Assembly: GCA_947258985.1 (NCBI GenBank)
Contig: CAMYKI010000002.1
Location: 10,248 to 74,247, forward strand
DNA: 64,000 nt
From: an uncultured Acidimicrobiaceae bacterium
GTDB taxonomy: Bacteria > Actinomycetota > Acidimicrobiia > Spongiisociales > UBA5794
Direction: 5' to 3'
A program made the position numbers and the translations under genes. The notes under the pieces were generated by a model. The model saw nothing but the letters and a program-made list of their open reading frames with translations, had not been told where the DNA came from and ran no database searches. Below, one piece after another: positions 6,533 to 28,864 of the stretch (the stretch's first letter is position 1; the number at the start of each line of letters is the position of its first letter).

Positions 6533-6651
6533 TTCACCTGTCTTGGGTCCCCAAAGGTTAGACGCGATCGTTAGATGCGCGTTCCGAAGCTATCGGATTC
6601 GTGCCAGGCTTCTTGAGGTGTTTGGCGGTCGAAGCCCAATGCCGTTGAGTG

Positions 6652-7977: not shown

Positions 7978-9502
7978 CCTGAGGGAATCGGGTTTCGGTG
8001 AGCACCGGTAGCCGGTTCTGCTGATTCAGTATCACCAGTGCCGAACCGGCGCCGTAGAACGCCCAGAGCAGCATTGACACCTGGGCTCCCTCGAGCGTCG
8101 GATCAAAAACGGCATTCACCAGTATGGGTATCGGGGCGAGCATGATCCACGTCGCCAGCGCCGACTCTCGCGGCCGGTCCCTGTAGCGAAGCCGGCGCCG
8201 CAGTGTCTGCATCTCCGCCATCCAGGTGATCCACAGCATGGCCCAGAGGATGATCCCTACCCAGCCCATGCGAGCGAGCACACCGACATGAGAGTTGTGA
8301 GGATTGCGCAGCGGATGTGTGGGGTCGGTGGAGATGTCGTAGCGCTCGCCCAGATCGGGTCCCGGGCCAAATCCCATGATTGGGGAGTCGTTGGTGACGT
8401 CGTCGAGTACCTGCTCCCAGATATTGAGACGCCAAGCTGTCGTCTCCGTCTGCCGTTGCCCGCCTTCGTCCGGGTTGAAGATGCTGGTGATGTTCTTGGT
8501 GAACTGCTCGATCGATATGTCGCGGTCGTCGAACAGCTCGATCTTCACGTCGAAGACCAGTCCGATCGACGCAAAGAACACAAGAATGCCCATCATCATC
8601 ATGACCATCTCGGTCCTGCGCTTGCTCAACAAGAACAACAAGGCTGCGATCAGGGCCGCGCTCGACACCATCCCGCCGCGATTCTGCAGGCCGGTGAAGA
8701 CGATCACGAGAGTCGCCACTGAAGTCAGCCAGGCTCGTTGCCTGGAGGTGAATAGTTTGGAGTCGCCGTCGGCCATCCATAGGAATGCGATTCCGATAGC
8801 CGAGAGCACTGCCATGTTCCCGCTGCGGTGAAAGAAGAGGGGAACCTCGGAGTCCGGGACGTAGATACTTTCACCGACAATTCTGTGGACCACAGTCGCA
8901 AACGGGTACCAAATGAGGTAGATGGGTAAGAGCTTGGCGAACGCGATCAACCATTCGTTGACCCGTTGCGGCCGGCTCACGAAAAGCATCACCACGAAGA
9001 AGGCAACCATTCCGTAATACCAGATAGCCGAGTCCCTGATGGCGTCGAGGCCGTAGGGGAGTATCCCGACTGCAAGCAATACCGCCCCCCACACCATGAA
9101 TACCCGCAACGCCCTGAGCGAAGAACTCGACCGGATTAGGGTCGGTAGACCAGTGTTGGTGGTGAAGATCACCGCTATCCCGAGAGCGAGCACCATCTCA
9201 CCGACAAACAGTGGGGTCCCTGGAACGTGGATCCAGGCGAATGGGCGGTCAAACATGATGTAGCCGGCAAGGACGAAGAGAAGCGCCGTGTTGAGCCACT
9301 CTGTCTGCCGGGCCTCGGGACCAACCGCTTGGGCGGGGGAACTGGTGCGGTGGGTTGACTTACCGGCCAGTGGCCGTTCTCGGGGGCGTCTTGCGGCGAC
9401 GAGCGCTCCGGCGAAAGCAAGGACTGTCACGGCGAGGACAATCCTGGACGTCGAACCGGTATTGGCCGCTACGACGAGCGGTGCGATGGAGAGTTCGATC
9501 AT
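7943..9502 (-). CDS. O-antigen ligase / Wzy-like polymerase family polytopic membrane protein
   Basis: 519 aa multi-TM protein with a large periplasmic loop between late TM helices, typical of the Wzy_C/O-antigen ligase family; in an operon with the Wzx-like and Wzz-like genes. Confidence 0.5.
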   Translation of the reverse strand: MIELSIAPLVVAANTGSTSRIVLAVTVLAFAGALVAARRPRERPLAGKSTHRTSSPAQAVGPEARQTEWLNTALLFVLAGYIMFDRPFAWIHVPGTPLFVGEMVLALGIAVIFTTNTGLPTLIRSSSSLRALRVFMVWGAVLLAVGILPYGLDAIRDSAIWYYGMVAFFVVMLFVSRPQRVNEWLIAFAKLLPIYLIWYPFATVVHRIVGESIYVPDSEVPLFFHRSGNMAVLSAIGIAFLWMADGDSKLFTSRQRAWLTSVATLVIVFTGLQNRGGMVSSAALIAALLFLLSKRRTEMVMMMMGILVFFASIGLVFDVKIELFDDRDISIEQFTKNITSIFNPDEGGQRQTETTAWRLNIWEQVLDDVTNDSPIMGFGPGPDLGERYDISTDPTHPLRNPHNSHVGVLARMGWVGIILWAMLWITWMAEMQTLRRRLRYRDRPRESALATWIMLAPIPILVNAVFDPTLEGAQVSMLLWAFYGAGSALVILNQQNRLPVLTETRFPQVERVPTHSAAN

Positions 9503-9623
9503 GGCCGTTCCTGGATCCGGGGTGCACCCCGCAAATCACCTGCGGAGTCTTCGCCTTCTATTTGAGTGTCACTGTACCGACGACGGCGGGCCTGTGAATG
9601 CGATCCCCCTCCCAAAACTGGGC

Positions 9624-11396
9624 CTATTCCGCCGGGGTCTCGGCGCCGGATCCGCCACGGCCGAGAATCTCGCGTCGCAGGGGGGCGAAGTTGTATACGT
9701 AACCCATCACCGGTACTCGGACTACCGCCAGGTACTGCCGGAGTTCCTCTGCCGTGGCAATGTCGCCCTTGTGCGGGACGACCACAAGGACCTGTTGTCC
9801 CAGGCGGACCACCGCGGAGCCGTGCGCCAGACGCAATACCGGTGGTGCATCTATCAGTACGAGATCGAATGACTCTTCGAGGGCATCGATGAGACCGGAG
9901 GCTTTGGTCGTACCGAAGAAGTCGGGCATCTGGCTCGCCAGGGTGCCTCGTTTGAACAGGGTGAGGTTCGTGCCGTCTGCACCGGTGAGGGACTCTCCGA
10001 CGCTTGCGAGGTCGGCTTCGCCGGCAGCAACATCCGTCAAGCCCTCGCCGTCCAGCCCTTCGGTGCTGAGAAGCGTCGTGAGTGCGGGGTTGACAAAGTC
10101 GGCATCGACCACGGCGACACGATTGCCACCGCGAGCAGCCGCAAACGCTGTGTTGGCGGTCACAGTGGTCTTGCCGTCGGCAAGCGTGGCAGAGGCCACC
10201 ACCACAGTCTTGAACGCGACATCGTCGTCGGACGAGTGCTGTCTGAGAGCAATTCCGGTAGCTACGAACCGGAACGATTCGGCTGCGGCTGAGTTGGGAG
10301 CGTCGGTCGTCGGCAAGTCAGACGAGAGGCGTTCGTCGCCGAATATCGGAATGTCGGATATGAGCCCGGTCTGGAGGATTGCCTGGGGTTCGCGCCGGGC
10401 TCGGAAGCTGCGCCGGCGCCGCGCCAACGATTGGGCGATTGCCGCACCGAGCATGGCTCCGCCGAGGACGCCGAGGACAATGAACAGGACACCACTTGAA
10501 GCTTCGGCGGTTTCTGCCGGCGAAGAGAAGACAACGCCGTTGCCGGCGAGTTCGGCGTCGACGGCAAGTTGGTCTCGCCGCAGCTGCAGGGCGCTGAGCC
10601 GGCTGCGCACCTCATCCTGCTGGAGGACGATTGCGGCGGTTGCTTCCTCGTCCACTGTGAACGTTCCAACTGCGATACGGAGCACGTTGACCCGGTCCCG
10701 GAGCTCTTCACGTCGCCGAGCCGATGCCGCGATCTCCTCGGGTGTTGCAGTTATCGGGGGCGCTTCATAAGCCAACAGTTCTTCGATGGCTTGCTGCAGT
10801 TGCGCCTCGGCGAGGAGTTGCTCGTCGGAAACCTCCTGCAGAACAGCGAGCTCGATCGACAGCTCAACGAGTTGTGCTTTCTGCTCGGCAATCTTGAGGT
10901 CCAGCTCCGCCAGGGCATCGCTGAATGTCGCCTCAGCTCCCTCCTGGCTGATGGACTCGTATGCGTCCGAGGTTGCGTTGGCCGCAATCACGGCTACGTC
11001 GGCCGTCGGATGTGAATAGGAGATGAAGATGAGATCGGTGGCCTCGGCGGCGCCGACCGTGAGGTTCTCTAGGTATTCGTCGATGTCGATCACGATCGGA
11101 TTCTCGAGGTCTGCGAGGTCGGAAAGGGTGCGGCGAGCCACGGACCTCGATCTGATGATCTCAATCTGGTCGGCCACGTACCTTGCTGGATCAAGACGTT
11201 GCGTCTGATCGAAGACAATCGAAGAACGAGGGTCCTGCACTGCGATTGTCGTCGCCGCCGTCCAGGCTGCCGAGGTCTGCGCAAACCACCAACCCAGGCC
11301 ACCAAAGACCAGGATGAACGCAAGCACCAGCCATCGGTATCGCCATGCGGCGCCGGGCAGCGTCGGTTCGAGATTGAGGTTTGTGGGCGTCAGCAT
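9624..11396 (-). CDS. Polysaccharide co-polymerase (Wzz-like) fused to a BY-kinase/MinD-like P-loop ATPase domain
   Basis: N-terminal TM + long coiled-coil periplasmic region + second TM; C-terminal Walker A (SATLADGKTT), Walker A' (VAVVDADF) and Walker B (DLVLIDAPP). No C-terminal Tyr cluster. Confidence 0.7.
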   Translation of the reverse strand: MLTPTNLNLEPTLPGAAWRYRWLVLAFILVFGGLGWWFAQTSAAWTAATTIAVQDPRSSIVFDQTQRLDPARYVADQIEIIRSRSVARRTLSDLADLENPIVIDIDEYLENLTVGAAEATDLIFISYSHPTADVAVIAANATSDAYESISQEGAEATFSDALAELDLKIAEQKAQLVELSIELAVLQEVSDEQLLAEAQLQQAIEELLAYEAPPITATPEEIAASARRREELRDRVNVLRIAVGTFTVDEEATAAIVLQQDEVRSRLSALQLRRDQLAVDAELAGNGVVFSSPAETAEASSGVLFIVLGVLGGAMLGAAIAQSLARRRRSFRARREPQAILQTGLISDIPIFGDERLSSDLPTTDAPNSAAAESFRFVATGIALRQHSSDDDVAFKTVVVASATLADGKTTVTANTAFAAARGGNRVAVVDADFVNPALTTLLSTEGLDGEGLTDVAAGEADLASVGESLTGADGTNLTLFKRGTLASQMPDFFGTTKASGLIDALEESFDLVLIDAPPVLRLAHGSAVVRLGQQVLVVVPHKGDIATAEELRQYLAVVRVPVMGYVYNFAPLRREILGRGGSGAETPAE

Positions 11397-11483
11397 TACT
11401 GACCTTCAGTGGCTGGAGGAAAACAGGAGCGAGCGTACTACACCGCCGCGGTAGGCCCCCCGTGGTGACGCGTATCTGGTTAG

Positions 11484-11686
11484 GAGACCGTTGCACAAAG
11501 GCGGTGAGGCTCGCCGGTGCAGCGAAGTGTCTGCTCGCGGGGCGGTCGTCGGGTCGGAACTCGCATTGTGCAGCGGGCTTCCAGGAGACGGTTGAGCAAA
11601 GGCGGTGAGGCTCGCCGGTGCGACGAAGTGTCTGGTCGCGGGGTAGGCGTCGGGTCGGAACTCGCATTGTTCAACAGTCTCCCAAG
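11484..11686. repeat. Intergenic tandem duplication, 2 copies of a ~101-bp unit (~85-90% identity)
   Basis: Copy 1 begins gagaccgttgcacaaaggcggtgaggctcgccggtgcagcgaagtgtctgctcgcgggg...; copy 2 begins gagacggttgagcaaaggcggtgaggctcgccggtgcgacgaagtgtctggtcgcgggg...; lies between divergent glycan-synthesis operons. Confidence 0.85.
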
Positions 11687-11903
11687 ACACCGCGCACGGG
11701 CGGTTCGGCTGCCGAGGTCACGCGGGCCGGCGCCCGCCGATTGCCGAGGGAGTAGCTATGACATAGCCAAGGTTGGGCCGCGTGTGTCGCCATCAACCAT
11801 GGATGGCTTAGGATGCGCACGCTGGGGCGCATGGCCCAAGCGTGGTAGAGACCCAATAGGGGGCGGGGGAAGTGATCCCGCCTCGGTAGAGAGGTAGGGA
11901 CAG

Positions 11904-12923
11904 GTGAAGCTACTAATTTTTGGCGCCGGAGGTTTTATTGGCTCGAACCTCGCTGAGCACCTGATCGAACAGGGTGAACACGAGGTGGTAGGGCTCGACG
12001 TCACCGCCGACAAGCTTGCCGGGATCGAGGGCCCGAACTTCAAGTTCGTCAAGGGCAACATCGCCGACGCCGACCTGGCAAACAAGCTGGTGGCCGATTG
12101 CGACGTCGTCGTCGATCTAATCGCATACGCCAACCCGAGCATTTACGTCGAGAAGCCACTCGATGTTGTGCATCTGAACTTCTTCGAGAACATGAAGATT
12201 CTCGAGTACTGCCTCAGTCATCAGAAGCGATTGGTCCAGTACTCGACGTCTGAGGTCTACGGCAAGCGCACCCGGGATGAGAGCTACAGCGACGACCATT
12301 CCGATCTCGTCATGGGTCCTGTGCAGAAGCAGCGTTGGATCTATGCATCGTCGAAGCAGTTGCTCGAGCGGATCATCTACGCTCACGGCGTCCAAGGCGA
12401 TCTGGACTACTCGATCATTCGTCCATTCAACTTCGTCGGACCGCGGTTCGACTACCTGGTTCCGGCCGGGTCCAAAGGCGGTCCCCGTGTGTTCTCTCAT
12501 TTCCTCTCGGCGTTGCTGACCGGTGGCCCGATCCAACTTGTAGACGGTGGGGATAAGCACCGCTGCTTCACCCACATCAAGGACGCTTGTGAAGCCTTCA
12601 GCGCGATCCTCGAGAATCCGGCCGGCCATAACGAGATCTTCAACGTTGGCAATCCGGACACCAATACAACGATGCGTGGTTTGGCCAAGATGATGCAGTC
12701 GATCTACGGGGAGCTCACGGGAACGCATCCTGACAATGAGCTCATCGACATCGACGGCGAAGACTTCTATGGCAAGGGTTACGAGGACATGGATCGGGTT
12801 CCGCCGGACGTGACCAAGCTCATGGCGCTTGGCTGGAAGCCGACCCGTGATCTCGATACGATCTTCCGCGAGGCGATCCAGTACTACCTGGATCGTCCTG
12901 ATCTGACAGCGGCCATTCGGTAG
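11904..12923 (+). CDS. NAD-dependent epimerase/dehydratase (UDP-glucuronate decarboxylase / ArnA-dehydrogenase-domain-like short-chain dehydrogenase/reductase)
   Basis: Rossmann motif MKLLIFGAGGFIGSNL, catalytic YASSKQ (YxxxK) motif, 339 aa. Confidence 0.7.
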   Translation: MKLLIFGAGGFIGSNLAEHLIEQGEHEVVGLDVTADKLAGIEGPNFKFVKGNIADADLANKLVADCDVVVDLIAYANPSIYVEKPLDVVHLNFFENMKILEYCLSHQKRLVQYSTSEVYGKRTRDESYSDDHSDLVMGPVQKQRWIYASSKQLLERIIYAHGVQGDLDYSIIRPFNFVGPRFDYLVPAGSKGGPRVFSHFLSALLTGGPIQLVDGGDKHRCFTHIKDACEAFSAILENPAGHNEIFNVGNPDTNTTMRGLAKMMQSIYGELTGTHPDNELIDIDGEDFYGKGYEDMDRVPPDVTKLMALGWKPTRDLDTIFREAIQYYLDRPDLTAAIR

Positions 12924-12935
12924 TTAGGAGCCGCG

Positions 12936-15326
12936 GTGGGGTGGATTGAGGGGCGTCGAAGATGGGTCTGGCTGTCCGGGCTCGTCTTCGTCGCGCTCCT
13001 TTTGACTCCGGTCGGGGTATCCGGCGCGGTGCCGGTGTCGAGTGGCGACGATGTTCTGATCATCGCCGCCCACCCGGACGATGATGTGATCACCGCCGCG
13101 GGGATCATTGAGGATCAGCTCGACGTTGGCGGGACCGTCACCGTGGCTTACGTCACGAACGGAGATCGGTGCGAGTCGCAGAGCCAGGTGGACAACGGGC
13201 GCTGCTCTGAACTGCAACCGGGTATCGGGACGGTCCGCCAAGGCGAAGCGGTCGATGCAGAGCGCGAGTTGGGCACGGTCGTCGGTAGCGACGAGAGCAA
13301 CCTCATCTTCATGGGATATCCCAATGGCTTTGTCGATGCGGTGCGTTACGGATGGGCACTACCGGAACTCTTCCATGACGAGACCTACGCCTCGCGGGGC
13401 TTGGGGGGTACCGACTGGCACGACCACCGCACTGGGGATCATGCCGCCTATACCGCGCAGAATCTCCTGGACGATATGGAGGCAGTGATCGAGGCCCGTA
13501 AGCCTGATCACATCTTCACCCACATGCGCTGGGACCGGCACGAGGACCATAGGGGCACCTACTACGTGGTCATTGATGCCGTCGAAAACGTGCAGGATGG
13601 CGATCCGAGTTACAACCCCTATATCCACACCGCACTGGTCCACGTTAAGGATCCGGCGCAATGGGGCCAATGGCCGGCATCCTCCAACCCGACTACTCCG
13701 GTGAACGAGTACTCGGAGCTCGGCGAAGACACCAACGATGAACTCGTATGGGATCAGCGGGAGAGCTTCGAGGTGCCGCCCGAGATGCAATTGCCCTACT
13801 ACTCGGGATCCAATCCCAAGGCTGAGGCTATTGAGGAGCATTCCAGCCAACTGGCCGACGGCTTCATCCGCCGGTTTGCCCACAGCGACGAGGTCTTCTG
13901 GGTTGAGAAGCTGGGTGCGGCAGAAGGACGTGACGACAACCACAGCCTCGATGAGGGCGGCTCGATCGCCGTGTCGGCCTCCGGGTTGCTGCGCAACGAC
14001 GTACGCGGCATTGGTATGCCGTTCGGCGTTGCCCCGGGCATTGATCCGACACCCCTCGGTCCAATGAGCGCAGTGAAGGTGACGAACCCCTCCCATGGGT
14101 CGGTGACCGTTGGATCCGATGGCTCGTTTACGTACACGCACGACGGCTCGGAGGCGGCGACCGACTCCTTCACGTACCGACCGGTCCAGGGATCCACCAA
14201 CGGATCGGTTGCGACGGTGACCATCAACGTCAATCCGATCAACGACCCCCCGAGCGCCGTTGCCGATGGTCCGTACACGGTCGCAAACGGCGGGACCAGC
14301 GACCTTCCTGTGCTCGGCAACGACACCGACCCAGAGAACGATCCACTCACGGCCATCGCAGACGCCGGTCCGCAACACGGGACGTTGCTCCCCAAAAGCA
14401 GCGGTTTCGCGTATACCCACGATGGGTCGGCCACGACAAGCGATTCCTTCACCTATCACGTGCGCGATACCGGCGGGTTGACCTCCGGTCCGGTGACGGT
14501 CTCAATAGACATCATCGAGGAAGTTCCCGATCCGCTTTCGGTGACGATGTCCGGCCCCGCCTTCGGTTCGCCGGGCACGACCGCAACGTACACAGCCGCT
14601 GCCAGCGGCGGGTCCGGTTCGGCCACCATCTCATGGTCGGTCATGCGGTCGGGCGTTGAGGTCGACTCAGGGGAAGGCACCACCTTCGATTTCGAGCCGG
14701 ATTTGGCCGGGGCTCACACGGTTATGGCAACGGCCGAAGACGGCTCCGACACCGACAGCGATTCGCTGGGTTTGACCGTCATGGAAGACATCGTAGGAAA
14801 CGTCTTCGCTGCCGACATCCTCTGGCTCGCCGACGAGGGCATCACCTTCGGCTGCAATCCGCCGGTCAACGATCAGTTCTGTCCGAAGGCGCTGGTGACT
14901 CGTGGGCAGATGGCTGCTTTCCTCGTGCGTTTCCTCGGCCTGACGGCCAGCGACGATGCGATCAACTTCACCGATACCGTTGGCAATATCTTTGCCGGGG
15001 ATATCCGGAAGTTGGCGACCGCAGGTATCACCCGCGGGTGCAACCCACCGGCTAACACTGAGTTCTGTCCCAACTCCTCGGTGACCCGGGGTCAGATGGC
15101 AGCATTCCTAGTGCGGGCGCTGGGACTCACCGACGATGGCGGCGGCAACCTGTTCACCGATGACAATGGTTCGATCTTCGAATCCGACATCGATCGGCTG
15201 GCGACCGCTGGCGTGACCAAGGGCTGCAATGCCGAGGGCACGCATTTCTGTCCAAGCGGATCGGTGACCCGGGAGCAGATGGCCGCTTTCCTGCATCGTG
15301 CTGCAGACCTCCTTCCCGGCAGATAA
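12936..15326 (+). CDS. Secreted multidomain surface protein: PIG-L/LmbE-family deacetylase + cadherin-like/PKD-like repeats + C-terminal triple SLH-like cell-wall-binding module
   Basis: Signal peptide; AHPDDDVITAAG (PIG-L HPDDE-like motif) and His/Asp clusters (WHDHRTGDH, RHEDH); repeats DSFTYRPVQGS...VTINVNPINDPP (cadherin/VCBS-like); three C-terminal repeats of the pattern FxDxxxxIFxxDIxxLAxxGITxGCNPPxNxxFCPxxxVTRGQMAAFLVRAL. Confidence 0.7.
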   Translation: MGWIEGRRRWVWLSGLVFVALLLTPVGVSGAVPVSSGDDVLIIAAHPDDDVITAAGIIEDQLDVGGTVTVAYVTNGDRCESQSQVDNGRCSELQPGIGTVRQGEAVDAERELGTVVGSDESNLIFMGYPNGFVDAVRYGWALPELFHDETYASRGLGGTDWHDHRTGDHAAYTAQNLLDDMEAVIEARKPDHIFTHMRWDRHEDHRGTYYVVIDAVENVQDGDPSYNPYIHTALVHVKDPAQWGQWPASSNPTTPVNEYSELGEDTNDELVWDQRESFEVPPEMQLPYYSGSNPKAEAIEEHSSQLADGFIRRFAHSDEVFWVEKLGAAEGRDDNHSLDEGGSIAVSASGLLRNDVRGIGMPFGVAPGIDPTPLGPMSAVKVTNPSHGSVTVGSDGSFTYTHDGSEAATDSFTYRPVQGSTNGSVATVTINVNPINDPPSAVADGPYTVANGGTSDLPVLGNDTDPENDPLTAIADAGPQHGTLLPKSSGFAYTHDGSATTSDSFTYHVRDTGGLTSGPVTVSIDIIEEVPDPLSVTMSGPAFGSPGTTATYTAAASGGSGSATISWSVMRSGVEVDSGEGTTFDFEPDLAGAHTVMATAEDGSDTDSDSLGLTVMEDIVGNVFAADILWLADEGITFGCNPPVNDQFCPKALVTRGQMAAFLVRFLGLTASDDAINFTDTVGNIFAGDIRKLATAGITRGCNPPANTEFCPNSSVTRGQMAAFLVRALGLTDDGGGNLFTDDNGSIFESDIDRLATAGVTKGCNAEGTHFCPSGSVTREQMAAFLHRAADLLPGR

Positions 15327-15377
15327 TGCTCGGCGCGTCGTACGATGCGTGTATAGAACTCTTGAGAGGAAATCGTC

Positions 15378-17150
15378 ATGACTCGGGCTAGTGGGAAACG
15401 GCACCGACCGCTCATTCTCGTTATCGGCATCGCGCTCCTTCTCGGGGTGGTGGCCGCACCCGGTACTCCGGCCGCCGACGCCTCGTTTCCCGGCGGGAGC
15501 GACTGGATAGTCTTCACTGGAGCCGACGAGGCCGGGACCGGCGATCAAGAGATATGGGCAATTGCTGCCGACGAATCGACCAGACCTGTCAACCTGACCA
15601 AGAACCAGTTGCTCGAGGGCGATCCGGCCTTCTCTGCCGACGGATCTCGCCTGGCTTTCGCCCGAGATGTGGGCGGTTCTTCCGCCATCTACGTTGCCGA
15701 TTTCGATCCGACAGGTCCGGCACTCGGCCCCGCACTCAAGGTCAGCAGCGGACCGATCGATGGCGGGCCGACCTGGTCGCCGGACGGGACGACGGTCGCA
15801 TTTCAGCGGAAGATCATTACAACGATGGCTTCTGGCGCGGCCGACGCCGCTGCTCCAAAGGATTTGATCGACGGGTCCGGGAATTTCGTTGCCAGAGGGG
15901 TTGTCGTCGGCGATACCGTGAGGAACCTCTCGGATGGGTCTAGTGGCATTGCCGCCGCAGTGTCGCCGTCTACGGTTGCGATCGCTGGTGGCCTTGTCGG
16001 AGGGACCTCCAACTCGTGGAAAGCCGGCGACACATACGCCGTGGAGCGATCTCACCGGCAGATCTTCGCTGTGCCGGCCGATGGATCAAACGCCGCCGGT
16101 ACGCGCCTGTCTCCCTCGGGGTCGCAGTTGCTCTACGACGACCAAGAGCCGGCCTGGTCACCCGACGGCGCCTTGATCGCCTTCACCTCCACCCAGGAAA
16201 GCGGCAACTCGGATATCTTCACCATGGCGGCAAGTGGTGGTTCGCGGAAGAACCTCACCAACGTGGGGTCTCTCGACAACGTTGCCAGTCGTGCCAGTTG
16301 GGCGCCGGACGGGCAGAACATCGCTTTTCAAATCGCCGAGCCCAACGTCGCCGACCAGAACATCTACAGGATGTCGCGAACGGGCGCAGGTGTGACCTTG
16401 ATTACCGGTGCAGCTGTGAGTGGAACCGACAACGACGTGGAGCCGGCCTGGTCGCCAGATGGCGCCCGCATCGGTTTCCGACGCGGCGGAACCGGAGGCA
16501 ACAAGCTCTACGTGATCAACGACGACGGAAGCGGTGTGGCAACGCGACTCGGGTCCGGTTCGCTGCCGGCTTTCAATAGCGACCCCGAGTGGCGACCGGT
16601 CATGCTGCTCTCCGACATCAGCAGCAGCCCGTTCTTCTTCGACATCCTGTGGCTGGCCGGGCGCGAGATCACCAAGGGCTGCAACCCGCCGATAAACGAT
16701 CAATTCTGTCCAGGTTCTCTGGTTACGCGGGGTCAGATGGCAGCTTTCCTGGTGCGGTTCCTAGCGTTGACGGCGAGCGACTCGTCGATCAGCTTCACCG
16801 ACACGGCTGGCAACATCTTTGCCGGAGATATCCGAAAGCTGGCAACGGCCGGCATCACTCGGGGCTGCAACCCGCCGGCCAATACGGAGTTCTGTCCGCA
16901 TGACTCGGTGACGCGGGGTCAGATGGCGGCTTTCCTGGTTCGTGCGCTGGGCCTCACGGATGATGGTGGCGGGAATCTGTTCGCCGATGTCGATGGTTCG
17001 ATCTTTCAGGAAGATATCGACAGGCTGGCAACCGCCGGCATAACAAAGGGCTGCAACCCGCCGGCCAACACGCGGTTCTGTCCGTACAGTTCAGTTACTC
17101 GTGGGCAGATGGCGGCGTTCTTGCATCGTGCCGCCAAGCACCTACCCTGA
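15378..17150 (+). CDS. Secreted TolB-like beta-propeller protein with C-terminal triple SLH-like module
   Basis: Signal peptide; repeated PxWSPDGxxIAF blades (PTWSPDGTTVAF, PAWSPDGALIAF, ASWAPDGQNIAF, PAWSPDGARIGF); same three C-terminal SLH-like repeats as the preceding gene. Confidence 0.7.
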   Translation: MTRASGKRHRPLILVIGIALLLGVVAAPGTPAADASFPGGSDWIVFTGADEAGTGDQEIWAIAADESTRPVNLTKNQLLEGDPAFSADGSRLAFARDVGGSSAIYVADFDPTGPALGPALKVSSGPIDGGPTWSPDGTTVAFQRKIITTMASGAADAAAPKDLIDGSGNFVARGVVVGDTVRNLSDGSSGIAAAVSPSTVAIAGGLVGGTSNSWKAGDTYAVERSHRQIFAVPADGSNAAGTRLSPSGSQLLYDDQEPAWSPDGALIAFTSTQESGNSDIFTMAASGGSRKNLTNVGSLDNVASRASWAPDGQNIAFQIAEPNVADQNIYRMSRTGAGVTLITGAAVSGTDNDVEPAWSPDGARIGFRRGGTGGNKLYVINDDGSGVATRLGSGSLPAFNSDPEWRPVMLLSDISSSPFFFDILWLAGREITKGCNPPINDQFCPGSLVTRGQMAAFLVRFLALTASDSSISFTDTAGNIFAGDIRKLATAGITRGCNPPANTEFCPHDSVTRGQMAAFLVRALGLTDDGGGNLFADVDGSIFQEDIDRLATAGITKGCNPPANTRFCPYSSVTRGQMAAFLHRAAKHLP

Positions 17151-17323
17151 CCACTAGACCATTACGGATCATATCTAGCCGGTGAGGGGAGGAAGGCTCC
17201 AAAATACGGATTGTGGTTGAGTGTACTCTTAGAGCGGTGGGCCAGGTGAGCGTGCCACGTTCAGCCTTCCCGTTCTACCGGTAGGAAAATGGTTCTTAGT
17301 CAAGGAATTGTGAGGGATTTGTC

Positions 17324-19921
17324 ATGACTCATGTGGGCGTAAGTATGCGCCGGATGCTAACGGTGCTGTTGGCGGCGACGCTGCTATTTGGCCTCACGGC
17401 CACGGTGGCGATTCAGCCCGCCAATGCCGGCTTCCCCGGTGGTACCGGATGGATAGTCTTCGAGAACAACTTCAGCCTGTACACCGTCTCGGCCGAAGGG
17501 GGAACTCCGCAGCTGGCTGAGGCTTCGTTGTTCAACCTGGCGGATCCGGTGTTCTCGCCGGATGGCACCGAGGTTGCTTTTGCCCAGGACGTTGGTGGGG
17601 CGACCGGCTCGGCGGTCTTTGTTGCCGGGTTCAACTCGTCTACCGGGATGCTCGATCCGGTCGTCAACTGGGATCAGGTTTCCAGTGGTCCTGTTGACGG
17701 TGAACCAACCTGGTCGCCAGACGGAAGCATGATCGCCTATCACCGGCGTACCGTTACGACTCGGGCGACAGGTCAGGTCGATGGCATTGATATGGGCGAC
17801 GACGACAAGTTGATCGACTCCACCGCCGACTTCATCGCGGCCGGTGTGCAGTCGGGCGACACTGTGCGTAATCTCGACGACCTATCGAGCGGGGTCGTTA
17901 CCGGGCGAACCACGACCGAGGTGACCATCGGAGGTGGCCTCGCGGGAGGAACGCTCGATGCTTGGACGATCGGTGACGACTACATCATCACCTACACCTC
18001 AAATCGGCAGCTCTACTACTCGGACTCCGACGGCTCGGATTTGAACGGAACTGCTCTCAGCGCCAACGGCTGGTCGGATTCGTACCACGACCAGAATCCG
18101 TCGTGGTCGCCAGATGGCGATTACATCGCCTTTGAGACGACTCGGAATGGCAGTGCCGACATCTTCACGCTGGAGTTCGCCAGTCCCAACACCGTCAACA
18201 ATCGCACGGGAAGCATCACCCTGTTTGCCACGCGACCCAACTGGTCGCCGGACTCGACCCAGATTGCATTCCAGTCTAAGAACGACAACGCGGCTGGTCC
18301 TGAGAACATCTGGCGTGTCAACGCTTCCGGCACCCCTGCGTTCGTTCAGGTAACCAACGCCGCAAGCGATGACTTGTCGCCAGCGTGGTCGCCGGACGGA
18401 ACAGAGATTGCCTTCCGCAATGTTGGAAGCGCCGGTCTCCGCGCGGCGCCGGCAGACACTGCAACTCCCGGGGCGACGCGCCTGATCGCAGCGGATGTTG
18501 GTGGCAACTCCAACAGCGAACCGGACTGGCAGCCGGTTCTCACCGGTGTCGACGATGCTTACGCCGTCGATGAAGGTGGGACACTCGACGTGCTGCTAGT
18601 CGACGGTGTCCTGGCAAACGATCTCGCTTTGGTTGACGACCTAGGTGCGGTGACAGCGACCAGCTTCACCACGACCACCAACGGTGTTTTGACGCCGAAT
18701 GCCAACGGGACATTCACGTACGTACACGACGGCTCGGAGACAACCACCGACTCGTTCACATACGTGCCTGCGCAAGGCTCGCTCACCGGCGGTATCACGA
18801 CCGTGACCATCACGATCGACCCGGTTGACGAGGCCCCTGTGGCAGTCAACGACGGTCCGTTTGCGGTGGTCAATGCCGGGACGATCAATGAGGCTGCCCC
18901 GGGTGTGCTCGAAAACGACACCGACCCCGAGGGCGGGGCGCTGCGAGCCTTCTTGGTTGCCGACGCCAGTAACGGCGACCTGACACTCAACGAGAATGGC
19001 TCGTTTACCTATGTGCATGACGGGTCGAACACGACGGTCGACTCCTTCACCTACCAGGCCAAGGACGCCGGCGACAACACGTCGAACACGGCAACCGTGA
19101 CCATCGAGATTGGGCCGATCGATCCCGATCCGCCCACGCCGACCATCCTGGGACCTTCGTTCGGTCAGCTCGGAGAAGAAGTTACCTTCAACTCGACAAT
19201 CACCGACGGCTCCGGAGGTCCCCTCAACTACACCTGGACGGTGACCAGGGACGGCACAGCCGTTCCTCCCGTCGGCACGAGTACGACGTATAGCCTCACG
19301 CCAGCGTTGAGCGGTGTCTACGAGGTCGAACTCGTTGTTGTCGATAGCGCCGGCACGGGTACGGCCACGTTCAAGTTCACGGTGATGACGGACATCGCGG
19401 ATAGCGTGTTTGCCTCAGACATCGTCTGGCTCGCCAACGAGGGAATCACCAAGGGCTGCAATCCGCCCGTGAACGACCAGTTCTGTCCCGACGCGACAGT
19501 GACTCGTGGTCAGATGGCGGCCTTCCTGGTGCGCTTCCTCGGCTTGACCGAAACCGACCCCACGATCGCATTCACAGATACGGCGTCTTCGATCTTCGAA
19601 GATGACATTCTCAAGCTGGCGACAGCCGGGATTACTCGTGGCTGCAACATCGAGGGGACGGCGTACTGCCCGAATGACAGCGTGACCCGCGGTCAGATGG
19701 CAGCGTTCCTCGTGCGTGCACTCGAGTTGACCGACGATGGCGGAGGCGATCTATTCGCAGACGATGACGACTCGATCTTCGAATCCGAGATCGACAAGCT
19801 GGCTACGGCAGGCATCACCAGAGGGTGTAACCCACCGGCCAACACGAACTTCTGCCCGACGGGCACGGTAACCCGTGGTCAGATGGCAGCGTTCCTGCAT
19901 CGTGCCGACGGACTCGACTAG
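17324..19921 (+). CDS. Secreted TolB-like beta-propeller + cadherin-like/PKD-like repeat protein with C-terminal triple SLH-like module
   Basis: Signal peptide MRRMLTVLLAATLLFGLTATVA; PxWSPDG propeller blades; DSFTY...VTITIDPVDEAP cadherin-like repeats; three SLH-like repeats at the C-terminus. Confidence 0.7.
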   Translation: MTHVGVSMRRMLTVLLAATLLFGLTATVAIQPANAGFPGGTGWIVFENNFSLYTVSAEGGTPQLAEASLFNLADPVFSPDGTEVAFAQDVGGATGSAVFVAGFNSSTGMLDPVVNWDQVSSGPVDGEPTWSPDGSMIAYHRRTVTTRATGQVDGIDMGDDDKLIDSTADFIAAGVQSGDTVRNLDDLSSGVVTGRTTTEVTIGGGLAGGTLDAWTIGDDYIITYTSNRQLYYSDSDGSDLNGTALSANGWSDSYHDQNPSWSPDGDYIAFETTRNGSADIFTLEFASPNTVNNRTGSITLFATRPNWSPDSTQIAFQSKNDNAAGPENIWRVNASGTPAFVQVTNAASDDLSPAWSPDGTEIAFRNVGSAGLRAAPADTATPGATRLIAADVGGNSNSEPDWQPVLTGVDDAYAVDEGGTLDVLLVDGVLANDLALVDDLGAVTATSFTTTTNGVLTPNANGTFTYVHDGSETTTDSFTYVPAQGSLTGGITTVTITIDPVDEAPVAVNDGPFAVVNAGTINEAAPGVLENDTDPEGGALRAFLVADASNGDLTLNENGSFTYVHDGSNTTVDSFTYQAKDAGDNTSNTATVTIEIGPIDPDPPTPTILGPSFGQLGEEVTFNSTITDGSGGPLNYTWTVTRDGTAVPPVGTSTTYSLTPALSGVYEVELVVVDSAGTGTATFKFTVMTDIADSVFASDIVWLANEGITKGCNPPVNDQFCPDATVTRGQMAAFLVRFLGLTETDPTIAFTDTASSIFEDDILKLATAGITRGCNIEGTAYCPNDSVTRGQMAAFLVRALELTDDGGGDLFADDDDSIFESEIDKLATAGITRGCNPPANTNFCPTGTVTRGQMAAFLHRADGLD

Positions 19922-19971
19922 CAAGAGACAGACACCAAACTGACAATGGGCCCCGCTTGCGGGGCCCATTG

Positions 19972-21066
19972 CTATTGCAGGGAGATACGTCGGGTGCGAC
20001 GTGCTTGAGGAGACAGTCGCTGATCCCAGACTCTCTTGGCGACGTGTATCGGCCCGGTGAGGGCGGCCGCAAGCAAGCGGATAGCCGTGCGCAGCGTGTC
20101 CCCCTGGGCGTATGCCAAACCGGCCTGGCGATAGTTGTACTGCGAGGCGTCCTCCATCCAGATGCGCAGCTTGTGCCACCACGGCGAATTCGCCTCGGTG
20201 GTGACGAACTCCTCGCGGGACGGGAGTGGGACACCGCCAAGGCGAGCGCGGCGCCGAGCCTCCAAGTAGCGATGGGTTCTCCTGCCCTCACGGAAGCGAA
20301 GCATCACATTGCTCGATGAGTAGATCCGGTACAGCAGTAACGGTTCGGGCATCGCGATGATCGCCCCATGGTCCGCCATCCGATCACAGAACTCCAGGTC
20401 GCCCGCTGTCCGCAGGCTGCCGTCGAAACCGCCCACCTTCTCGAAGAGCTCGCGGCGATACATGGCGGTGCCACCGAACACCAAGGTTGGTTCTCCTCTG
20501 CGGCGTAGTTCCTCGAATTCGGCAACCGTCGTTGGTCCCGTCGGGGAGAGACTCAGTATCTCCTCGCTGTCGTTGGCGTGCGAAACGTAGCTGCCGAGTA
20601 CAGCGATCTCGGGTCTGGCCTCTAGCAATTCCACCTGCTTCTCGAGCCGCGTCGGCAGCGAGACATCGTCCGCATCCATACCCGCAAGTAGCGGTGCCCG
20701 GGCCATTGCCGCAGCCCGGTTGGTGGTGGCGTACTGACCGCGGTTCTCCTCGTTGCGGAATCCGTGAACTCGTTTGTCCTTGGTGGCATATGTTTGGATG
20801 AGATCCCAAGTACCGTCAGTCGATTGATCGTCACCGACGATGAGCTCGATATCGGCGAGCGTCTGTTCGAGGATGCTGTCGATGGCCCTGGCGATGTAGG
20901 GCTCGGCGTTGTAGGCCGGCATCAGGACGCTGACAACAGGAACGCGTTCCGTCTTGCGCTTCGGTTTTGCTGCAACGTCAGTCAAGGGATCGCTCCCGGA
21001 TCGAATTGGCCTCGAGATTGGATTCTGAATCGAACTCCGGCTGCGACACCGTCGCACCTTCGGCAT
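19972..21066 (-). CDS. Family 2 glycosyltransferase (GT-A fold)
   Basis: VSVLMPAYNAEPYIARAIDSILEQT...IVGDDQSTDGT and a DAD(D) motif. The true start is probably downstream of the annotated ORF start, which overlaps the upstream flippase gene by 88 nt. Confidence 0.75.
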   Translation of the reverse strand: MPKVRRCRSRSSIQNPISRPIRSGSDPLTDVAAKPKRKTERVPVVSVLMPAYNAEPYIARAIDSILEQTLADIELIVGDDQSTDGTWDLIQTYATKDKRVHGFRNEENRGQYATTNRAAAMARAPLLAGMDADDVSLPTRLEKQVELLEARPEIAVLGSYVSHANDSEEILSLSPTGPTTVAEFEELRRRGEPTLVFGGTAMYRRELFEKVGGFDGSLRTAGDLEFCDRMADHGAIIAMPEPLLLYRIYSSSNVMLRFREGRRTHRYLEARRRARLGGVPLPSREEFVTTEANSPWWHKLRIWMEDASQYNYRQAGLAYAQGDTLRTAIRLLAAALTGPIHVAKRVWDQRLSPQARRTRRISLQ

Positions 21067-22300
21067 AGAGGCGTTTCAGCCAGTAAGTGCCGCCTGCAAC
21101 CCGGAGAAGACCTTCCAGAATGTAGCCCAGCGGCCGGGCAAACGCGCCGGTCGTCCCGGCGGTAACCGCGGCAAGCGGCAGAGCCGGCGCCGCAACAACC
21201 GAAATGAATGCCAGCGTCCGGGCCTTGCCTCCGCCCAGCAGCTCGCGGCTGAGGATGAGATAGAGGGCGATCAGAACATTCCCAAGCACCGTCGCTGCGG
21301 CGAGGCCGCCGATCACATATGCCGAAGGGATTAGGTAGGCCATGGGATTGAGGCTCCACGACCAGCCGGCGATCGTCGCGTACGCCACGCCGCCGAGAGC
21401 CATCAGGGCTAGGTAGACGTTCCGATTGGAGCGTGCGGCCACAGCATCCCGGTCGGCCCCGGCACGCACCGCACGCGGCCCTAGAACGGCCATGAGGCCA
21501 ACAGAGAAGACCGTGATCGGCTGGGCAACCTGTCGCGCCGCCTCGGCGTAGCCGTAAGCTTCTGGACCGGCGAGGTCGGTGATGATGTTGGCCGAGATGA
21601 AGGCCAGCGTTGCCGGGGTTGCGGCACGGAGCACGAGCCATTTCCCGGACGCAGCCAGGCTGCTGAACGTCATCGAAGTCCGGTCCTGTACCTTGCCGAG
21701 GTGGCCTTGCGCCAGGAGATAGGCAACGGAGAGGGAGACGACGTTGGCGGTCGCCAGTGATCCAAACGGGATCCAGGCACGGGGGACGTCCGAAAGGAAC
21801 ATGACGGTGATGGTGACCGCGATCGTCACCAATTGGACCGTCGACACAACGACTGCAAGCCACGACTTCTCCGCGATATGCAGGAGCTGTCGCACGTGAT
21901 CCTGCATCGGCGAGACCACGATGATGACGGCCGTTGGAACCGCCAACGCCACAATGACGTCTGTAGATGTCAGGTCCTGGGTCAGGAGCGCTGTGACGGG
22001 AGCAACCATCGCAGTGACGAGACCCGGCCCAATCGCCAGCCCGAGGCTTCTTCTCGTGACACTCAGCCGTTCTGCGAGCGGCTTGCTCACCGCAACAACC
22101 TGGGCGGGGACGAGGATCAGCTCGGAAAGGACAATCGAGCCCAGGAAGAATGCCGCAAAGAAGATGCCATAGACACCGCGGTCGACATCGCTGAGCAAGT
22201 TGAGGCCGGCAAGGCCTGCGCCGAAGGTCGCGATCGAAGCCAGCGCGGCGTCGACGACACCTGCAGCCAGTAGCTTCTTCCGCAACGGTCCCTTGCTCAT
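20978..22300 (-). CDS. Polysaccharide biosynthesis protein / Wzx-like flippase (second copy)
   Basis: 440 aa polytopic membrane protein paralogous to CDS 6652-7977 (shared motifs around DLGVY/DRGVYGIFFAAF and the downstream helices). Confidence 0.6.
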   Translation of the reverse strand: MSKGPLRKKLLAAGVVDAALASIATFGAGLAGLNLLSDVDRGVYGIFFAAFFLGSIVLSELILVPAQVVAVSKPLAERLSVTRRSLGLAIGPGLVTAMVAPVTALLTQDLTSTDVIVALAVPTAVIIVVSPMQDHVRQLLHIAEKSWLAVVVSTVQLVTIAVTITVMFLSDVPRAWIPFGSLATANVVSLSVAYLLAQGHLGKVQDRTSMTFSSLAASGKWLVLRAATPATLAFISANIITDLAGPEAYGYAEAARQVAQPITVFSVGLMAVLGPRAVRAGADRDAVAARSNRNVYLALMALGGVAYATIAGWSWSLNPMAYLIPSAYVIGGLAAATVLGNVLIALYLILSRELLGGGKARTLAFISVVAAPALPLAAVTAGTTGAFARPLGYILEGLLRVAGGTYWLKRLYAEGATVSQPEFDSESNLEANSIRERSLD

Positions 22301-22332
22301 GGACGCCGCCTCATCACTTTCTGCCGTTGTGC

Positions 22333-23985
22333 CTAGTAGGCCTGCCCAACCTTGTCGGCTACGCGGAGGGCCCAGGCAACGGTGGTAAGGAGCGGATTCG
22401 CGTAACCGCTCACCGGGAACACCGACGAGTCGGCAATGTACAGGTCGGCCACGGTATGGGCACGACCTTCGGGATCGACCACGCCGAGCTTAGGGTCGGT
22501 CGCCATCCTCGCGGTTCCGAGATGGTGGTGTCCGCCGCGGAGACCGGGCCCCCAATCAGCAGAGTCGGCTTTGAACGCAGGTTCCGGGACCAGGTGTCCG
22601 AGTCCAGACGACTCGAGCTGACTCCCGATGATTCTCTGCGCCTTGACGATGGAATCCTTGTCGATACGGCTCAGTCGCCACTCGAGGTTGATCCGGGGCA
22701 TGCCCAGCGCATCGGTCTTCGATGCGTTGAGCGTCATCCGGCTGTCCCGATTCGGCGATTGCTCGCTCTGGGTGTACAACGCCAACTGTTTCGGCCGACG
22801 GAGCGCTTCGTGGTAGATCACCTGCATGATCTCCGGAGTTCCCTTGATCAGTCGCATCGTGAGACGTTTGGAATCCTCCGGCAGCGACTTGGTTCTGATC
22901 TGGCGGTACATCTGGCTGGGAGACCGGAGGTTGCCGACGGCGAGCTTGAAGGCCTGATAGGCATCAGATTCCTCGCGGCTCACCGGGCTGACGGTGCGAA
23001 GATGCGTAGAGAAGTTGAGTAGGTGCTCCGACTCCTGCTTCTCCCGACTGACCGTGTAGGCCACCTTCATTGCTCCCGCCGGCCTTTGTAGTGCCAGTCG
23101 GGCGCGGACACCCCCGAAACCCTTGTCGATTGCATCGAGACCGGGCCGGTTGGTCTTTGTCTGGGGGAACAACTCGATTCTCCCGGTGACCAGATGTGGA
23201 TGCTCCATGAAATAGCGTCCAACCACGTCGTTCTCGTTGGCGAGCCCGGCGGGATTGGCGCGCTGAGAAGCCAGCAGCAAACGGCTCGTCTCCAGAGCGC
23301 CGGCGGCGAGCACAACGGCCCTGGAGCCAACTGTGAACTCATTGCCTTCGAGAGTTGCAACCCTGACTCCGGTTGCCTTCGTGCCGGCCTCATCGCTGAG
23401 GACCTCTACAGCGGTAGCGTTGGTGATCGTTGTTATCTGGCGGGAAGTCTCGAGCTGCTCTCGGTATACGTTGCCGAACTTCGTTGGAGGGCTCCCCTCC
23501 CAGAGAGCGATCTCGACGTCCTTTCCGACGAATGGATCGACGTACACGGGGGGCAGGTTGCTGCCCTCCTCCGGCGCCCATTGCATCTTGTCGAGCTGGC
23601 AGAGGCGGGCCGCATCGGAGTAGTAGGGCAGGAATTCGTCGTATGAGATCGGCCACCCACTGTTGGGGACCCAGGGTCGGCCATCGAAGTCGATGCGATC
23701 CATCGGGCGACACCAGCCCGCCCACTTGTGGCTGGACCCTCCGAGGACACGGTGGCGGGTCAGAGTGAGGTCGTAGTAATCCAGGCCGACGTTGTCTCCC
23801 GCGTTGAGCTCCTGTGGTTCGGGCTCCGTCGCCACGCCGCCGCTCTCGAGGAGAACGATGTTGAGTGCAGTCGTACGAGCCAGTCGGAGGGCGAGGCCGA
23901 TTCCTGCGGGTCCCCCGCCCACAACGCAAATATCGGTTTCGAGCTGTGTTCCACGAGGGATCTGAGCGCCACCCTGGATGGCCAT
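22333..23985 (-). CDS. GMC-family FAD-dependent oxidoreductase (choline dehydrogenase-like)
   Basis: N-terminal FAD fingerprint ICVVGGGPAGIGLALRLA; 550 aa; GMC C-terminal region with conserved His. Confidence 0.65.
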   Translation of the reverse strand: MAIQGGAQIPRGTQLETDICVVGGGPAGIGLALRLARTTALNIVLLESGGVATEPEPQELNAGDNVGLDYYDLTLTRHRVLGGSSHKWAGWCRPMDRIDFDGRPWVPNSGWPISYDEFLPYYSDAARLCQLDKMQWAPEEGSNLPPVYVDPFVGKDVEIALWEGSPPTKFGNVYREQLETSRQITTITNATAVEVLSDEAGTKATGVRVATLEGNEFTVGSRAVVLAAGALETSRLLLASQRANPAGLANENDVVGRYFMEHPHLVTGRIELFPQTKTNRPGLDAIDKGFGGVRARLALQRPAGAMKVAYTVSREKQESEHLLNFSTHLRTVSPVSREESDAYQAFKLAVGNLRSPSQMYRQIRTKSLPEDSKRLTMRLIKGTPEIMQVIYHEALRRPKQLALYTQSEQSPNRDSRMTLNASKTDALGMPRINLEWRLSRIDKDSIVKAQRIIGSQLESSGLGHLVPEPAFKADSADWGPGLRGGHHHLGTARMATDPKLGVVDPEGRAHTVADLYIADSSVFPVSGYANPLLTTVAWALRVADKVGQAY

Positions 23986-24019
23986 GATTGCTCCTTAGTT
24001 CCTACCACTGTTTGTATGC

Positions 24020-26837: not shown

Positions 26838-27154
26838 TACTGCCTCTGCTATCGCCGTCGTGATTGCCAGGAGTGCGGACTCCGCGAGGTGAGCCGCCCC
26901 CCGGGCACGCTAGCAGCGAGCGCTCATTGTGCGGACGAAGCGGTCATGGGGTGGCCGAGGGTGGGGGCGGTGCTGACCAGCTGTGTCCGATTGAATACCC
27001 ACCGCGGCGACAATGCCAGCACATGCTGGTAACTAGTCACTAGAGTAAGGGGTGAAATAGCCAGTCACCGGTTGTGATTTCGGCCCTAGGATGAGGTCGG
27101 GCTAGTTAGTAGTACGTCCGGGCTTTTGGACGAACGCGATAGGGGGCATCGGGG

Positions 27155-27859: not shown

Positions 27860-27900
27860 TCGGGCCTACCGACCGGGACCCCATTGATCATCTTGGGTTC

Positions 27901-28746: not shown

Positions 28747-28864
28747 AGGACTCGTTCTGGGCTAGGAGCCTGCTGAGCAATGTCAGTTTGGTCTCGCAGC
28801 AGCGTCTGTGACGGGGCGTTTTTCGTGGCCGTGCGAGTCCACACGCCATTTGCCCAGCAGTCTC

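Follow-up and report, generated by a model that had tools for sequence, protein, structure and literature searches.

The locus analysed here raises the question of whether a triplicated, cysteine-bearing repeat common to four predicted exported proteins is a genuine S-layer homology (SLH) module and, if so, how and to what it would anchor them. The proteins are encoded in a stretch of 64,000 nucleotides from an uncultured Acidimicrobiaceae bacterium (assembly GCA_947258985.1, contig CAMYKI010000002.1, positions 10,248 to 74,247), hereafter the window, to which the coordinates below refer. We consider it likely that this cysteine-containing triplet (Cys-SLH) is a true SLH module acting as a general, non-covalent wall anchor whose groove-lining loop is stapled by a disulfide. 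An earlier note on this DNA had described four reading frames with three tandem repeats of ~60 amino acids each, and these are present as described, the triplet being C-terminal in the products of coding sequences A (12936..15326, + strand, 796 aa), B (15378..17150, +, 590 aa) and C (17324..19921, +, 865 aa), and N-terminal in that of D (28865..30574, -, 569 aa). The triplets themselves span 14772..15323 (+, aa 613-796) in A, 16599..17147 (+, aa 408-590) in B, 19376..19918 (+, aa 685-865) in C and 29933..30487 (-, aa 30-214) in D, and hmmsearch with a repeat hidden Markov model (HMM) detected no further copy in the 64 kb of the window.

Several independent comparisons bear on the assignment of the repeats to the SLH family, which the same note had proposed from the consensus and which the HMM search upholds. 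The Pfam SLH model (PF00395, the SLH domain being PS51272 in PROSITE; gathering cutoff 20.8 bits) matched all four proteins, with 36.9, 33.8, 37.2 and 29.8 bits for A, B, C and D, and also 82 of 86 related open reading frames (ORFs). NCBIfam holds no model dedicated to the Cys-SLH variant, the sole match to the repeats being the SLH-containing end of a NEAT/LRR model. Among PDB sequences, single-sequence searches matched SbsB (1e-6) and Sap (2e-5) in their SLH regions, and a Cys-SLH family profile aligned with both over all three repeats (3.2e-15 and 2e-13, respectively). The B triplet, modelled with AlphaFold2 from a 113-sequence alignment, is predicted with high scores (predicted local distance difference test, pLDDT, 95.7; predicted template-modelling score, pTM, 0.90) as six helices arranged 2+2+2, two per repeat, in the three-pronged spindle that an SLH-like trimer should display, a pseudo-threefold arrangement of three lobes around a core bundle of three helices. 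When the PDB was searched with this model by Foldseek, the 15 closest structures were all SLH trimers of Sap or SpaA (template-modelling score, TM, 0.64-0.84), headed by the Sap structure 3PYW (E 5.7e-9, TM 0.78/0.81); 6BT4 is also Sap. Because the Pfam, profile, AlphaFold2 and Foldseek results agree, we regard the repeats as true SLH domains, and the predicted spindle fold, as established as far as computation allows. The number of repeats is likewise nearly constant, exactly three being found in 142 of the 157 ORFs of the window and related loci.

Whether these domains could bind a wall polymer depends on the grooves between the repeats. In crystals of SpaA and Sap with ligand, pyruvylated ManNAc lies in a groove whose elements include the backbone of SLH-28/Gly29 and Trp13 of the third repeat; Gly29, the second glycine of GIIxG, flips upon ligand binding and Trp13 stacks (PMC6081394). 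We mapped these classical positions by HMM alignments and by a survey of 451 repeats in 157 ORFs from 84 loci, comprising the window and its relatives. The equivalent of Gly29, within the motif GITxG, is glycine in 448/451 repeats, and that of Arg43, which classically stands in the TRAE motif at the start of the core helix, is arginine in the same proportion (448/451), mostly as T-R-G-Q (in full VTRGQ) with TREQ, TRGE and RRDA as variants; both are retained in 12/12 window repeats. Since glycine and arginine are kept in every repeat of A-D, all three grooves are potentially competent. Position 13, by contrast with the classical Trp, is Phe in 84% of the surveyed repeats, His in 13%, Tyr in 1% and never Trp; in the window D1 has His and the other 11 repeats have Phe, the aromatic character being kept and the canonical Trp (occasionally Tyr) not.

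To our knowledge, all characterised SLH proteins of monoderm bacteria come from Firmicutes, and the comparison with them delimits what is shared and what is new. The Bacillus anthracis protein Sap (3PYW, 6BT4), the best structural match, has in common with Cys-SLH the three-repeat spindle, the location of the module at one terminus of exported proteins and the TRAE-type arginine, GIIxG glycine and aromatic residue lining each groove. It is only 22-23% identical, however, lacks cysteine where Cys-SLH has its pair (repeat 1 having Asn and Glu there), has an inter-helix loop 2-3 residues shorter, and carries Trp where Cys-SLH has Phe and TRAE where Cys-SLH has TRGQ. SpaA of Paenibacillus alvei (6CWC, 6CWH, 7SV3) shows the same fold with TM ~0.7, tolerates TRAQ, and has its active grooves defined by Gly29 and Arg43, but only two of its grooves are competent, whereas Cys-SLH keeps the glycine and the arginine in all three repeats. 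SbsB of Geobacillus stearothermophilus (4AQ1) is the best match of the sequence profile over three repeats but lacks the Cys pair and has a shorter loop (GK-TETKFG versus GCNPPxNDxFC). Both SpaA and SbsB are S-layer lattice proteins, the latter of a Firmicute, whereas the Cys-SLH triplet carries enzymes, propellers and adhesin-like domains.

The distinctive feature of the variant is a loop that lines the groove. The first cysteine directly follows the flip glycine (SLH-30) and the second directly precedes a conserved proline (SLH-36/37), at positions where classical SLH domains have Tyr/Asn/Lys and Arg/Lys/Glu/Gly, respectively, and the proline-rich loop between them, C-N-P-P-x-N-D-x-F-C-P, is 2-3 residues longer than the classical one. 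In SpaA the corresponding loop (residues 44-54) is flexible and sets the groove open or closed (PMC6081394); that of Cys-SLH is instead Pro-rich and bracketed by two invariant cysteines. The pairs lie at residues 640/649, 702/711 and 764/772 of A, 435/444, 497/506 and 559/568 of B, 712/721, 774/782 and 835/844 of C, and 57/66, 119/128 and 181/190 of D, within a set of invariant or nearly invariant columns across the window repeats (F.D, I, GIT.GCN, CP, V(T)R and MA.FL.R). The earlier note had attributed to every repeat two cysteines separated by eight residues: the pair as such stands in 12/12 repeats, as G-C-x7/8-C-P, but the spacing holds in only 10/12, the loops of A3 (GCNAEGTHFCP) and C2 (GCNIEGTAYCP) having seven intervening residues. 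These short loops, of the form GCN[A/I]EGTx[F/Y]CP, occupy different positions in their triplets (~15210-15245 in A and ~19640-19675 in C), are matched in length by 7/309 repeats among top database hits, and contain an EGT(x)F reminiscent of the canonical SLH 'DGTF'; they might stand midway between the classical loop and NPPxNDxF, or have arisen by short-tract exchange.

The conservation of the pair, which the same note had predicted to extend to orthologues, is complete in our survey: it was found in 451/451 repeats without a single loss of one cysteine, and a stricter regular expression recovered it in 309/333 repeats among the top 120 database hits. A further set of 135 new 50%-identity representatives had at least one Cys-pair repeat in 135/135 cases and exactly three in 117. 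Protein cysteines are, moreover, even in number in 111/135 of these representatives, and in the window most of them belong to the repeat pairs (6/8 in A, 6/6 in B, 6/6 in C and 6/7 in D). Exported proteins of Actinobacteria show an even-biased cysteine content, a Dsb-like system and disulfide stabilisation, whereas those of Firmicutes exclude cysteine (PMC2823432). A disulfide in the groove wall would therefore be affordable in Actinobacteria and disfavoured in Firmicutes, given that the former oxidise their exported proteins and the latter exclude cysteine from theirs. On these indirect grounds, and as the proteins are predicted to be exported, each pair probably forms a disulfide within its domain and so staples the loop that lines the groove, and a bond at the base of this proline-rich loop would make the groove wall rigid. 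The absolute invariance of the pair and its position beside the ligand-binding glycine could also be expected of a functional site, either a pair of metal ligands or a redox switch for release and attachment as the redox conditions outside the cell vary, and from the groove architecture (PMC6081394) it can be deduced that the oxidation state of cysteines in this wall might alter groove geometry. Yet a metal is poorly bound by two thiols on their own, and the loop offers no conserved His, Asp or additional Cys, a lack of accompanying ligand residues for which we set the metal site aside as unlikely. The proteins lie, besides, outside the cytoplasm, where this lineage makes disulfides as a matter of routine, and even cysteine counts together with a loop that is short, rich in proline and closed at the base are what a structural staple typically shows, so a functional role of the pair in place of the structural disulfide appears very improbable to us.

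The divergence of the copies bears on the kind of selection that has acted on the module. As the earlier note had remarked, the repeats of the paralogues are nearly identical as proteins and differ at many synonymous sites: A2 and B2 share 92% amino acid but 81% nucleotide identity, with ~1.2 synonymous (dS) and 0.046 nonsynonymous (dN) substitutions per site (dN/dS 0.04), although the ranges it quoted for comparison (14950-15057 and 16798-16905) are 21 nt off register and, aligned directly, only 34% identical. The remaining pairs of repeats in the same position gave dS 0.85-2.0 and dN/dS 0.1-0.25, values in keeping, over the whole range of 0.04-0.25, with the long-term purifying selection invoked in that note. 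The repeats are orthologous by position, the identities being 66-79% among A1/B1/C1, 75-92% among A2/B2/C2 and 68-74% among A3/B3/C3, compared with 43-66% among repeats inside a single protein. That the SLH modules are 66-92% identical between paralogues whose cargo is only ~40% identical could suggest homogenisation by gene conversion rather than purifying selection, as could the presence of the rare short loop in repeat 3 of A but repeat 2 of C, which might reflect short-tract exchange. Corresponding repeats are, however, close to saturation at synonymous sites, the same residues are kept over hundreds of distinct genomes, and no long identical nucleotide tracts were seen between the paralogues, the closest pair being 81% identical. 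Synonymous divergence thus led us to reject gene conversion as the cause of the likeness, an explanation to which we grant hardly any probability; with synonymous sites near saturation, any conversion must be ancient.

If the triplet is a wall anchor, its bearers should be exported and diverse. The N-termini of A, B, C and D, read by eye, combine a charged n-region, a hydrophobic core and an Ala-rich cleavage site (MGWIEGRRRWVWLSGLVFVALLLTPVGVSGA in A), a Sec-like organisation from which the four proteins are predicted to be extracytoplasmic. Behind its signal peptide, A carries a PIG-L/LmbE-type deacetylase domain (Pfam 78 bits), two cadherin-like/Big_9 domains (Big_9 69.5, Cadherin_4 63.8) and a PKD-like domain before the triplet. 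The cargo of B is a PD40/TolB-like beta-propeller (Pfam PD40 115.5 bits; the NCBIfam TolB propeller model gave 101 bits, below its cutoff), and that of C a PD40 beta-propeller (80.8), two cadherin-like domains (Cadherin_4 74.6) and PKD (29.3). In D the triplet precedes a right-handed beta-helix (Beta_helix 88.4) of NosD-like type (NosD 41.9). The PIG-L domain of A (PF02585, in the N-terminal part of the protein, 12936-13600, +) has a Cys pair of its own (C79/C90) and stands behind a signal peptide in a protein presumably anchored by SLH; the members of the PIG-L/LmbE family characterised so far (MshB, BshB and Mca) are cytoplasmic, and this one may be an extracellular glycan de-N-acetylase. 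A paralogue of the D beta-helix, 41% identical and devoid of SLH repeats, is encoded at 25215..26837 (-). Its signal is of the lipoprotein type (LLLTGC), and a long linker rich in Thr and Pro takes the place of the triplet; with SLH repeats in D and a lipoprotein signal here, one type of beta-helix enzyme appears to have two modes of anchoring within 2 kb.

The related proteins extend this picture. Their triplets are C-terminal in 102 ORFs, N-terminal in 30 and placed otherwise in 13, and the extracytoplasmic cargo identified with Pfam in 86 related ORFs includes PD40 propellers (9), GSDH propellers (8), cadherin-like/Big_9 domains (8), Peptidase_M15_4 (5), SpoIID (4), subtilases of family Peptidase_S8 (3), CAP (2), and one case each of polysaccharide deacetylase, VanW and Peptidase_M23. 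A single locus, L050, has four neighbouring Cys-SLH proteins with M23, GSDH, M15_4+FG-GAP and SpoIID domains. Fusions to wall hydrolases and such promiscuity of cargo would be expected, as in Firmicutes, of an anchor that serves to target proteins to the wall in general. The cargo, consisting of enzymes, propellers and cadherin-like repeats, gave no sign of S-layer lattice formation, and we do not class these proteins among those of S-layers. On the reading that we prefer, three SLH repeats fold into a spindle by which an Acidimicrobiia-like actinobacterium anchors its Sec-exported proteins to the wall in a modular, non-covalent way; in the window these are the PIG-L deacetylase with cadherin-like domains, the two proteins with beta-propellers and the beta-helix enzyme.

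Proteins of this kind proved to be abundant. A search of a 90%-clustered database with a word prefilter gave 6,257 matches, and among 50%-identity representatives there were 37,331 at E<=1e-3, 11,973 at E<=1e-10 and 1,938 at E<=1e-30, these last being the ~1,900 clusters of the family. Scanning GTDB with one genome for each species gave 460 confirmed relatives, of which the best 79 loci were inspected with +/-10 kb of flanking sequence. The metagenome-assembled genomes (MAGs) behind these 79 loci are labelled Acidimicrobiia or Acidimicrobiaceae in 47 cases, Actinomycetota in 7, unclassified bacterium in 22 and Acidobacteriota or Bacteroidetes in 3 (possibly mis-binned); where the source MAGs are named at class level, the name is almost always Acidimicrobiia. 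Several genomes supply many loci, with at least six from MFD05684.bin.2.275, and complete Acidimicrobiia chromosomes with the variant include OZ244213.1 and OY970200.1. One locus labelled 'uncultured Bacteroidetes' (L055, contig CAVVHP010000010.1) has Wzz, Wzy, GT2, GT1, epimerase and GMC homologues in common with the window, to which it appears syntenic, and is probably a mislabelled or mis-binned Acidimicrobiia contig. The notion that SLH modules are uncommon in high-GC Actinomycetota, put forward in the earlier note, turned out to be overstated, as reviews list Actinobacteria among the SLH-richest phyla (PMC6801904, PMC6081394) and the variant is very abundant in Acidimicrobiia MAGs; another report mentions SLH/CsaB in 'a few examples within Actinobacteria' (bioRxiv 10.1101/2021.05.31.446380). 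The label 'S-layer homology domain-containing protein [Acidimicrobiia bacterium]' is already in use at NCBI, and our literature search found no paper on a Cys-containing SLH variant, on SLH in Acidimicrobiia or on SLH disulfides. Cys-SLH is thus best described as a lineage-specific, apparently undescribed variant of a well-known module, not as a new kind of system.

What the triplet binds is a more delicate matter. In each groove between repeats, an anionic sugar from a secondary glycopolymer bound to the wall would meet the arginine of TR(G/A)(Q/E), the flip glycine of GITxG and an aromatic Phe, with anchoring most likely as in Sap and SpaA; wall binding itself and the kind of ligand, be it pyruvylated or anionic in another way, are what we infer. 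The classical mechanism of SLH anchoring requires the pyruvyl transferase CsaB. The proven ligand of Sap is a terminal 4,6-Pyr-ManNAc made with CsaB, whereas no csaB was seen in the Cys-SLH window. Four types of search were made for such an enzyme: Pfam on 32 selected ORFs of at least 200 aa in 1-44.7 kb of the window, phmmer with the Escherichia coli protein WcaK, phmmer and hmmsearch with the transferase domain of the related locus L038, and a 109-sequence PF04230 profile with the filters off (--max), the last three covering all stop-to-stop ORFs of at least 120 aa in the 64 kb. It was these three that extended to the part beyond 44.7 kb and to the other ORFs of at least 200 aa before it, most of which are shadow ORFs overlapping the 32.

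None of these searches found a pyruvyl transferase in the window, the csaB-type gene that the earlier note had suggested looking for included, and csaB was also missing from the neighbourhoods of two relatives on long contigs (P0081 and P0040). A CsaB-like pyruvyl transferase adjoins Cys-SLH genes in only 2 of the ~79 neighbourhoods (L038 and L050), and close kin of this enzyme, at 43% identity or more, amount to ~45 clusters against the ~1,900 of Cys-SLH. The replacement of Trp by Phe/His and of TRAE by TRGQ, together with the remodelled groove loop, means that the triplet may not share the ligand specificity seen in Sap and SpaA. To this it should be added that the disulfide is something we infer, and that the best 79 loci include no cultured isolate, all being MAGs, with no carrier known to have been studied experimentally. 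Taken together, these points weigh against a stapled triplet that anchors in the classical manner. The link to a pyruvylated polymer that the earlier note had drawn is not established, given the lack of csaB in the window; the residues equivalent to Gly29 and Arg43 are kept in ~99% of the repeats.

The two exceptional loci deserve closer description. L038 (3970-12597) and L050 (7215-15775) are syntenic, each with a gene for an ~870-aa fusion of a GT2 and a CsaB-like domain directly followed by three tandem Cys-SLH genes, whose products in L050 carry GSDH, Peptidase_M15_4+FG-GAP and SpoIID domains; an M23-SLH gene and a UDP-sugar dehydrogenase gene lie nearby. The transferase domain of the fusion scored 60.8 bits with PF04230, 80-83 bits with the CsaB model TIGR03609 (below its cutoff of 213) and ~20 bits with WcaK, the CsaB model being its best match among pyruvyl-transferase models, and its close kin are named from Acidimicrobiia or Actinomycetota MAGs. 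With CsaB-like fusions adjoining Cys-SLH genes, the clade does have pyruvylation, in some cases genetically linked to these genes, and if it has any 'SLH + ligand synthesis' cassette, this arrangement is the foremost candidate.

The genomic surroundings of A-D have nonetheless to be considered, as they lend themselves to a different view of the ligand. The four genes lie within a Wzy-type cell-surface glycan gene cluster (5450..34213, both strands), delimited from Pfam and NCBIfam matches, that includes genes for a Wzy-like protein (7943-9502, -), an NAD-epimerase (11904-12923, +), GT2 (19972-21066, -) and GT1 (24020-25222, -) glycosyltransferases, a GMC oxidoreductase (22333-23985, -), a Bac_transf protein (27155-27859, +), a WecG/TagA/CpsF glycosyltransferase (27901-28746, +) and a TuaD-like UDP-glucose 6-dehydrogenase (30675-32183, -; 435 bits). 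A, B and C are co-oriented downstream of the epimerase gene, with successive gaps of 12, 51 and 173 bp, and the WecG/TagA-family transferase recalls the tagA, tagO and csaB genes clustered with SpaA (PMC6801904). This cluster is a candidate source of the wall ligand. With the same fold and the same manner of anchoring, the ligand could then be another anionic wall glycan, for instance a uronic-acid, teichuronic-like polymer made by the flanking genes, with the stapled, remodelled loop and the change of Trp to Phe reflecting a new specificity. Such a reading would accommodate the missing csaB and the rarity of pyruvyl transferases in related neighbourhoods as well as the presence of the UDP-glucose 6-dehydrogenase, WecG/TagA/CpsF and Bac_transf genes around A-D, and UDP-sugar dehydrogenase genes do occur near Cys-SLH genes in 6 other loci.

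It has a precedent, too, in the OmpM-type tethers of Negativicutes and Deinococcus/Thermus (8BYM, 8BYS), which belong to the same Pfam family (weak profile matches, E 0.01-0.08) and illustrate that SLH domains can change their ligand specificity, cadaverinated peptidoglycan being what the OmpM SLH of Negativicutes binds; these are nevertheless proteins of diderms in which SLH is joined to a coiled coil and a porin, without the Cys pair, whereas Cys-SLH is a triplet on soluble exoproteins of a presumed monoderm. A more remote parallel is the triple CWB2 module of Clostridioides difficile, a trimeric wall binder whose conserved arginines bind an anionic wall polymer (PMC6081394) but whose fold and family are different, our searches giving no match to it. 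Against a glycan of another kind stands the ~99% conservation of the arginine and glycine by which SpaA and Sap grip the carboxylate of pyruvate, and also the CsaB-like genes placed directly beside Cys-SLH arrays in L038 and L050; besides, csaB needs no linkage to SLH genes, and the visible portion of the genome is 64 kb. Glycan-type genes of the window cluster recur in only ~10-12 of ~80 loci, and the WecG/TagA gene in none, so that the arrangement in the window is not a general rule and a consistent linkage between Cys-SLH and glycan clusters had to be rejected. All this considered, a ligand of this other type seems to us unlikely, if worth keeping in mind, and a pyruvylated or otherwise anionic polymer bound in the manner of Sap and SpaA the preferable reading. 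A bolder formulation, in which the stapled triplet constitutes a distinct SLH specificity class that anchors the Acidimicrobiia exoproteome to a non-pyruvylated uronic-acid-type polymer, the disulfide-locked, proline-rich loop pre-organising a site unlike that of Sap and SpaA, is in our judgement rather doubtful.

Some other features of the cluster may be recorded. Paralogous genes for Wzz and P-loop (BY-kinase-like) proteins at 9624-11396 (-) and 32381-34213 (+) bracket the glycan and SLH genes in divergent orientation, and the location of a GMC-family oxidoreductase gene among glycosyltransferase genes is unusual for such clusters. Four ORFs, 5450-6532 (-), 6652-7977 (-), 20978-22300 (-) and 35766-37055 (+), had no Pfam matches at E<=1; the product of 20978-22300 resembles a membrane protein with several passes and is a possible flippase. 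A scan of 11300-20300 for promoters and terminators was uninformative.

Our findings do not overturn the current understanding of SLH domains but show the same fold built without cysteines in Firmicutes and with a putative disulfide in Actinobacteria. A dedicated subfamily HMM would improve the annotation of these proteins, the invariant Cys pair beside the ligand-binding glycine offers a clean experimental handle, and a stapled, compact SLH triplet could serve as a robust surface-display tag. Should the uronic-acid reading be true, it would add a third class of SLH ligand to secondary cell wall polymers that are pyruvylated and to polyaminated peptidoglycan, and would define the dominant surface-display mechanism of an actinobacterial class that is uncultured and widespread. 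The Acidimicrobiia occur widely, in marine and freshwater communities as in those of soil and sludge, and are mostly uncultured and essentially unstudied as to their cell envelope. For these bacteria, some of whose genomes have many copies, the Cys-SLH module is probably the general means of displaying enzymes, wall hydrolases and adhesin-like proteins at the cell surface.

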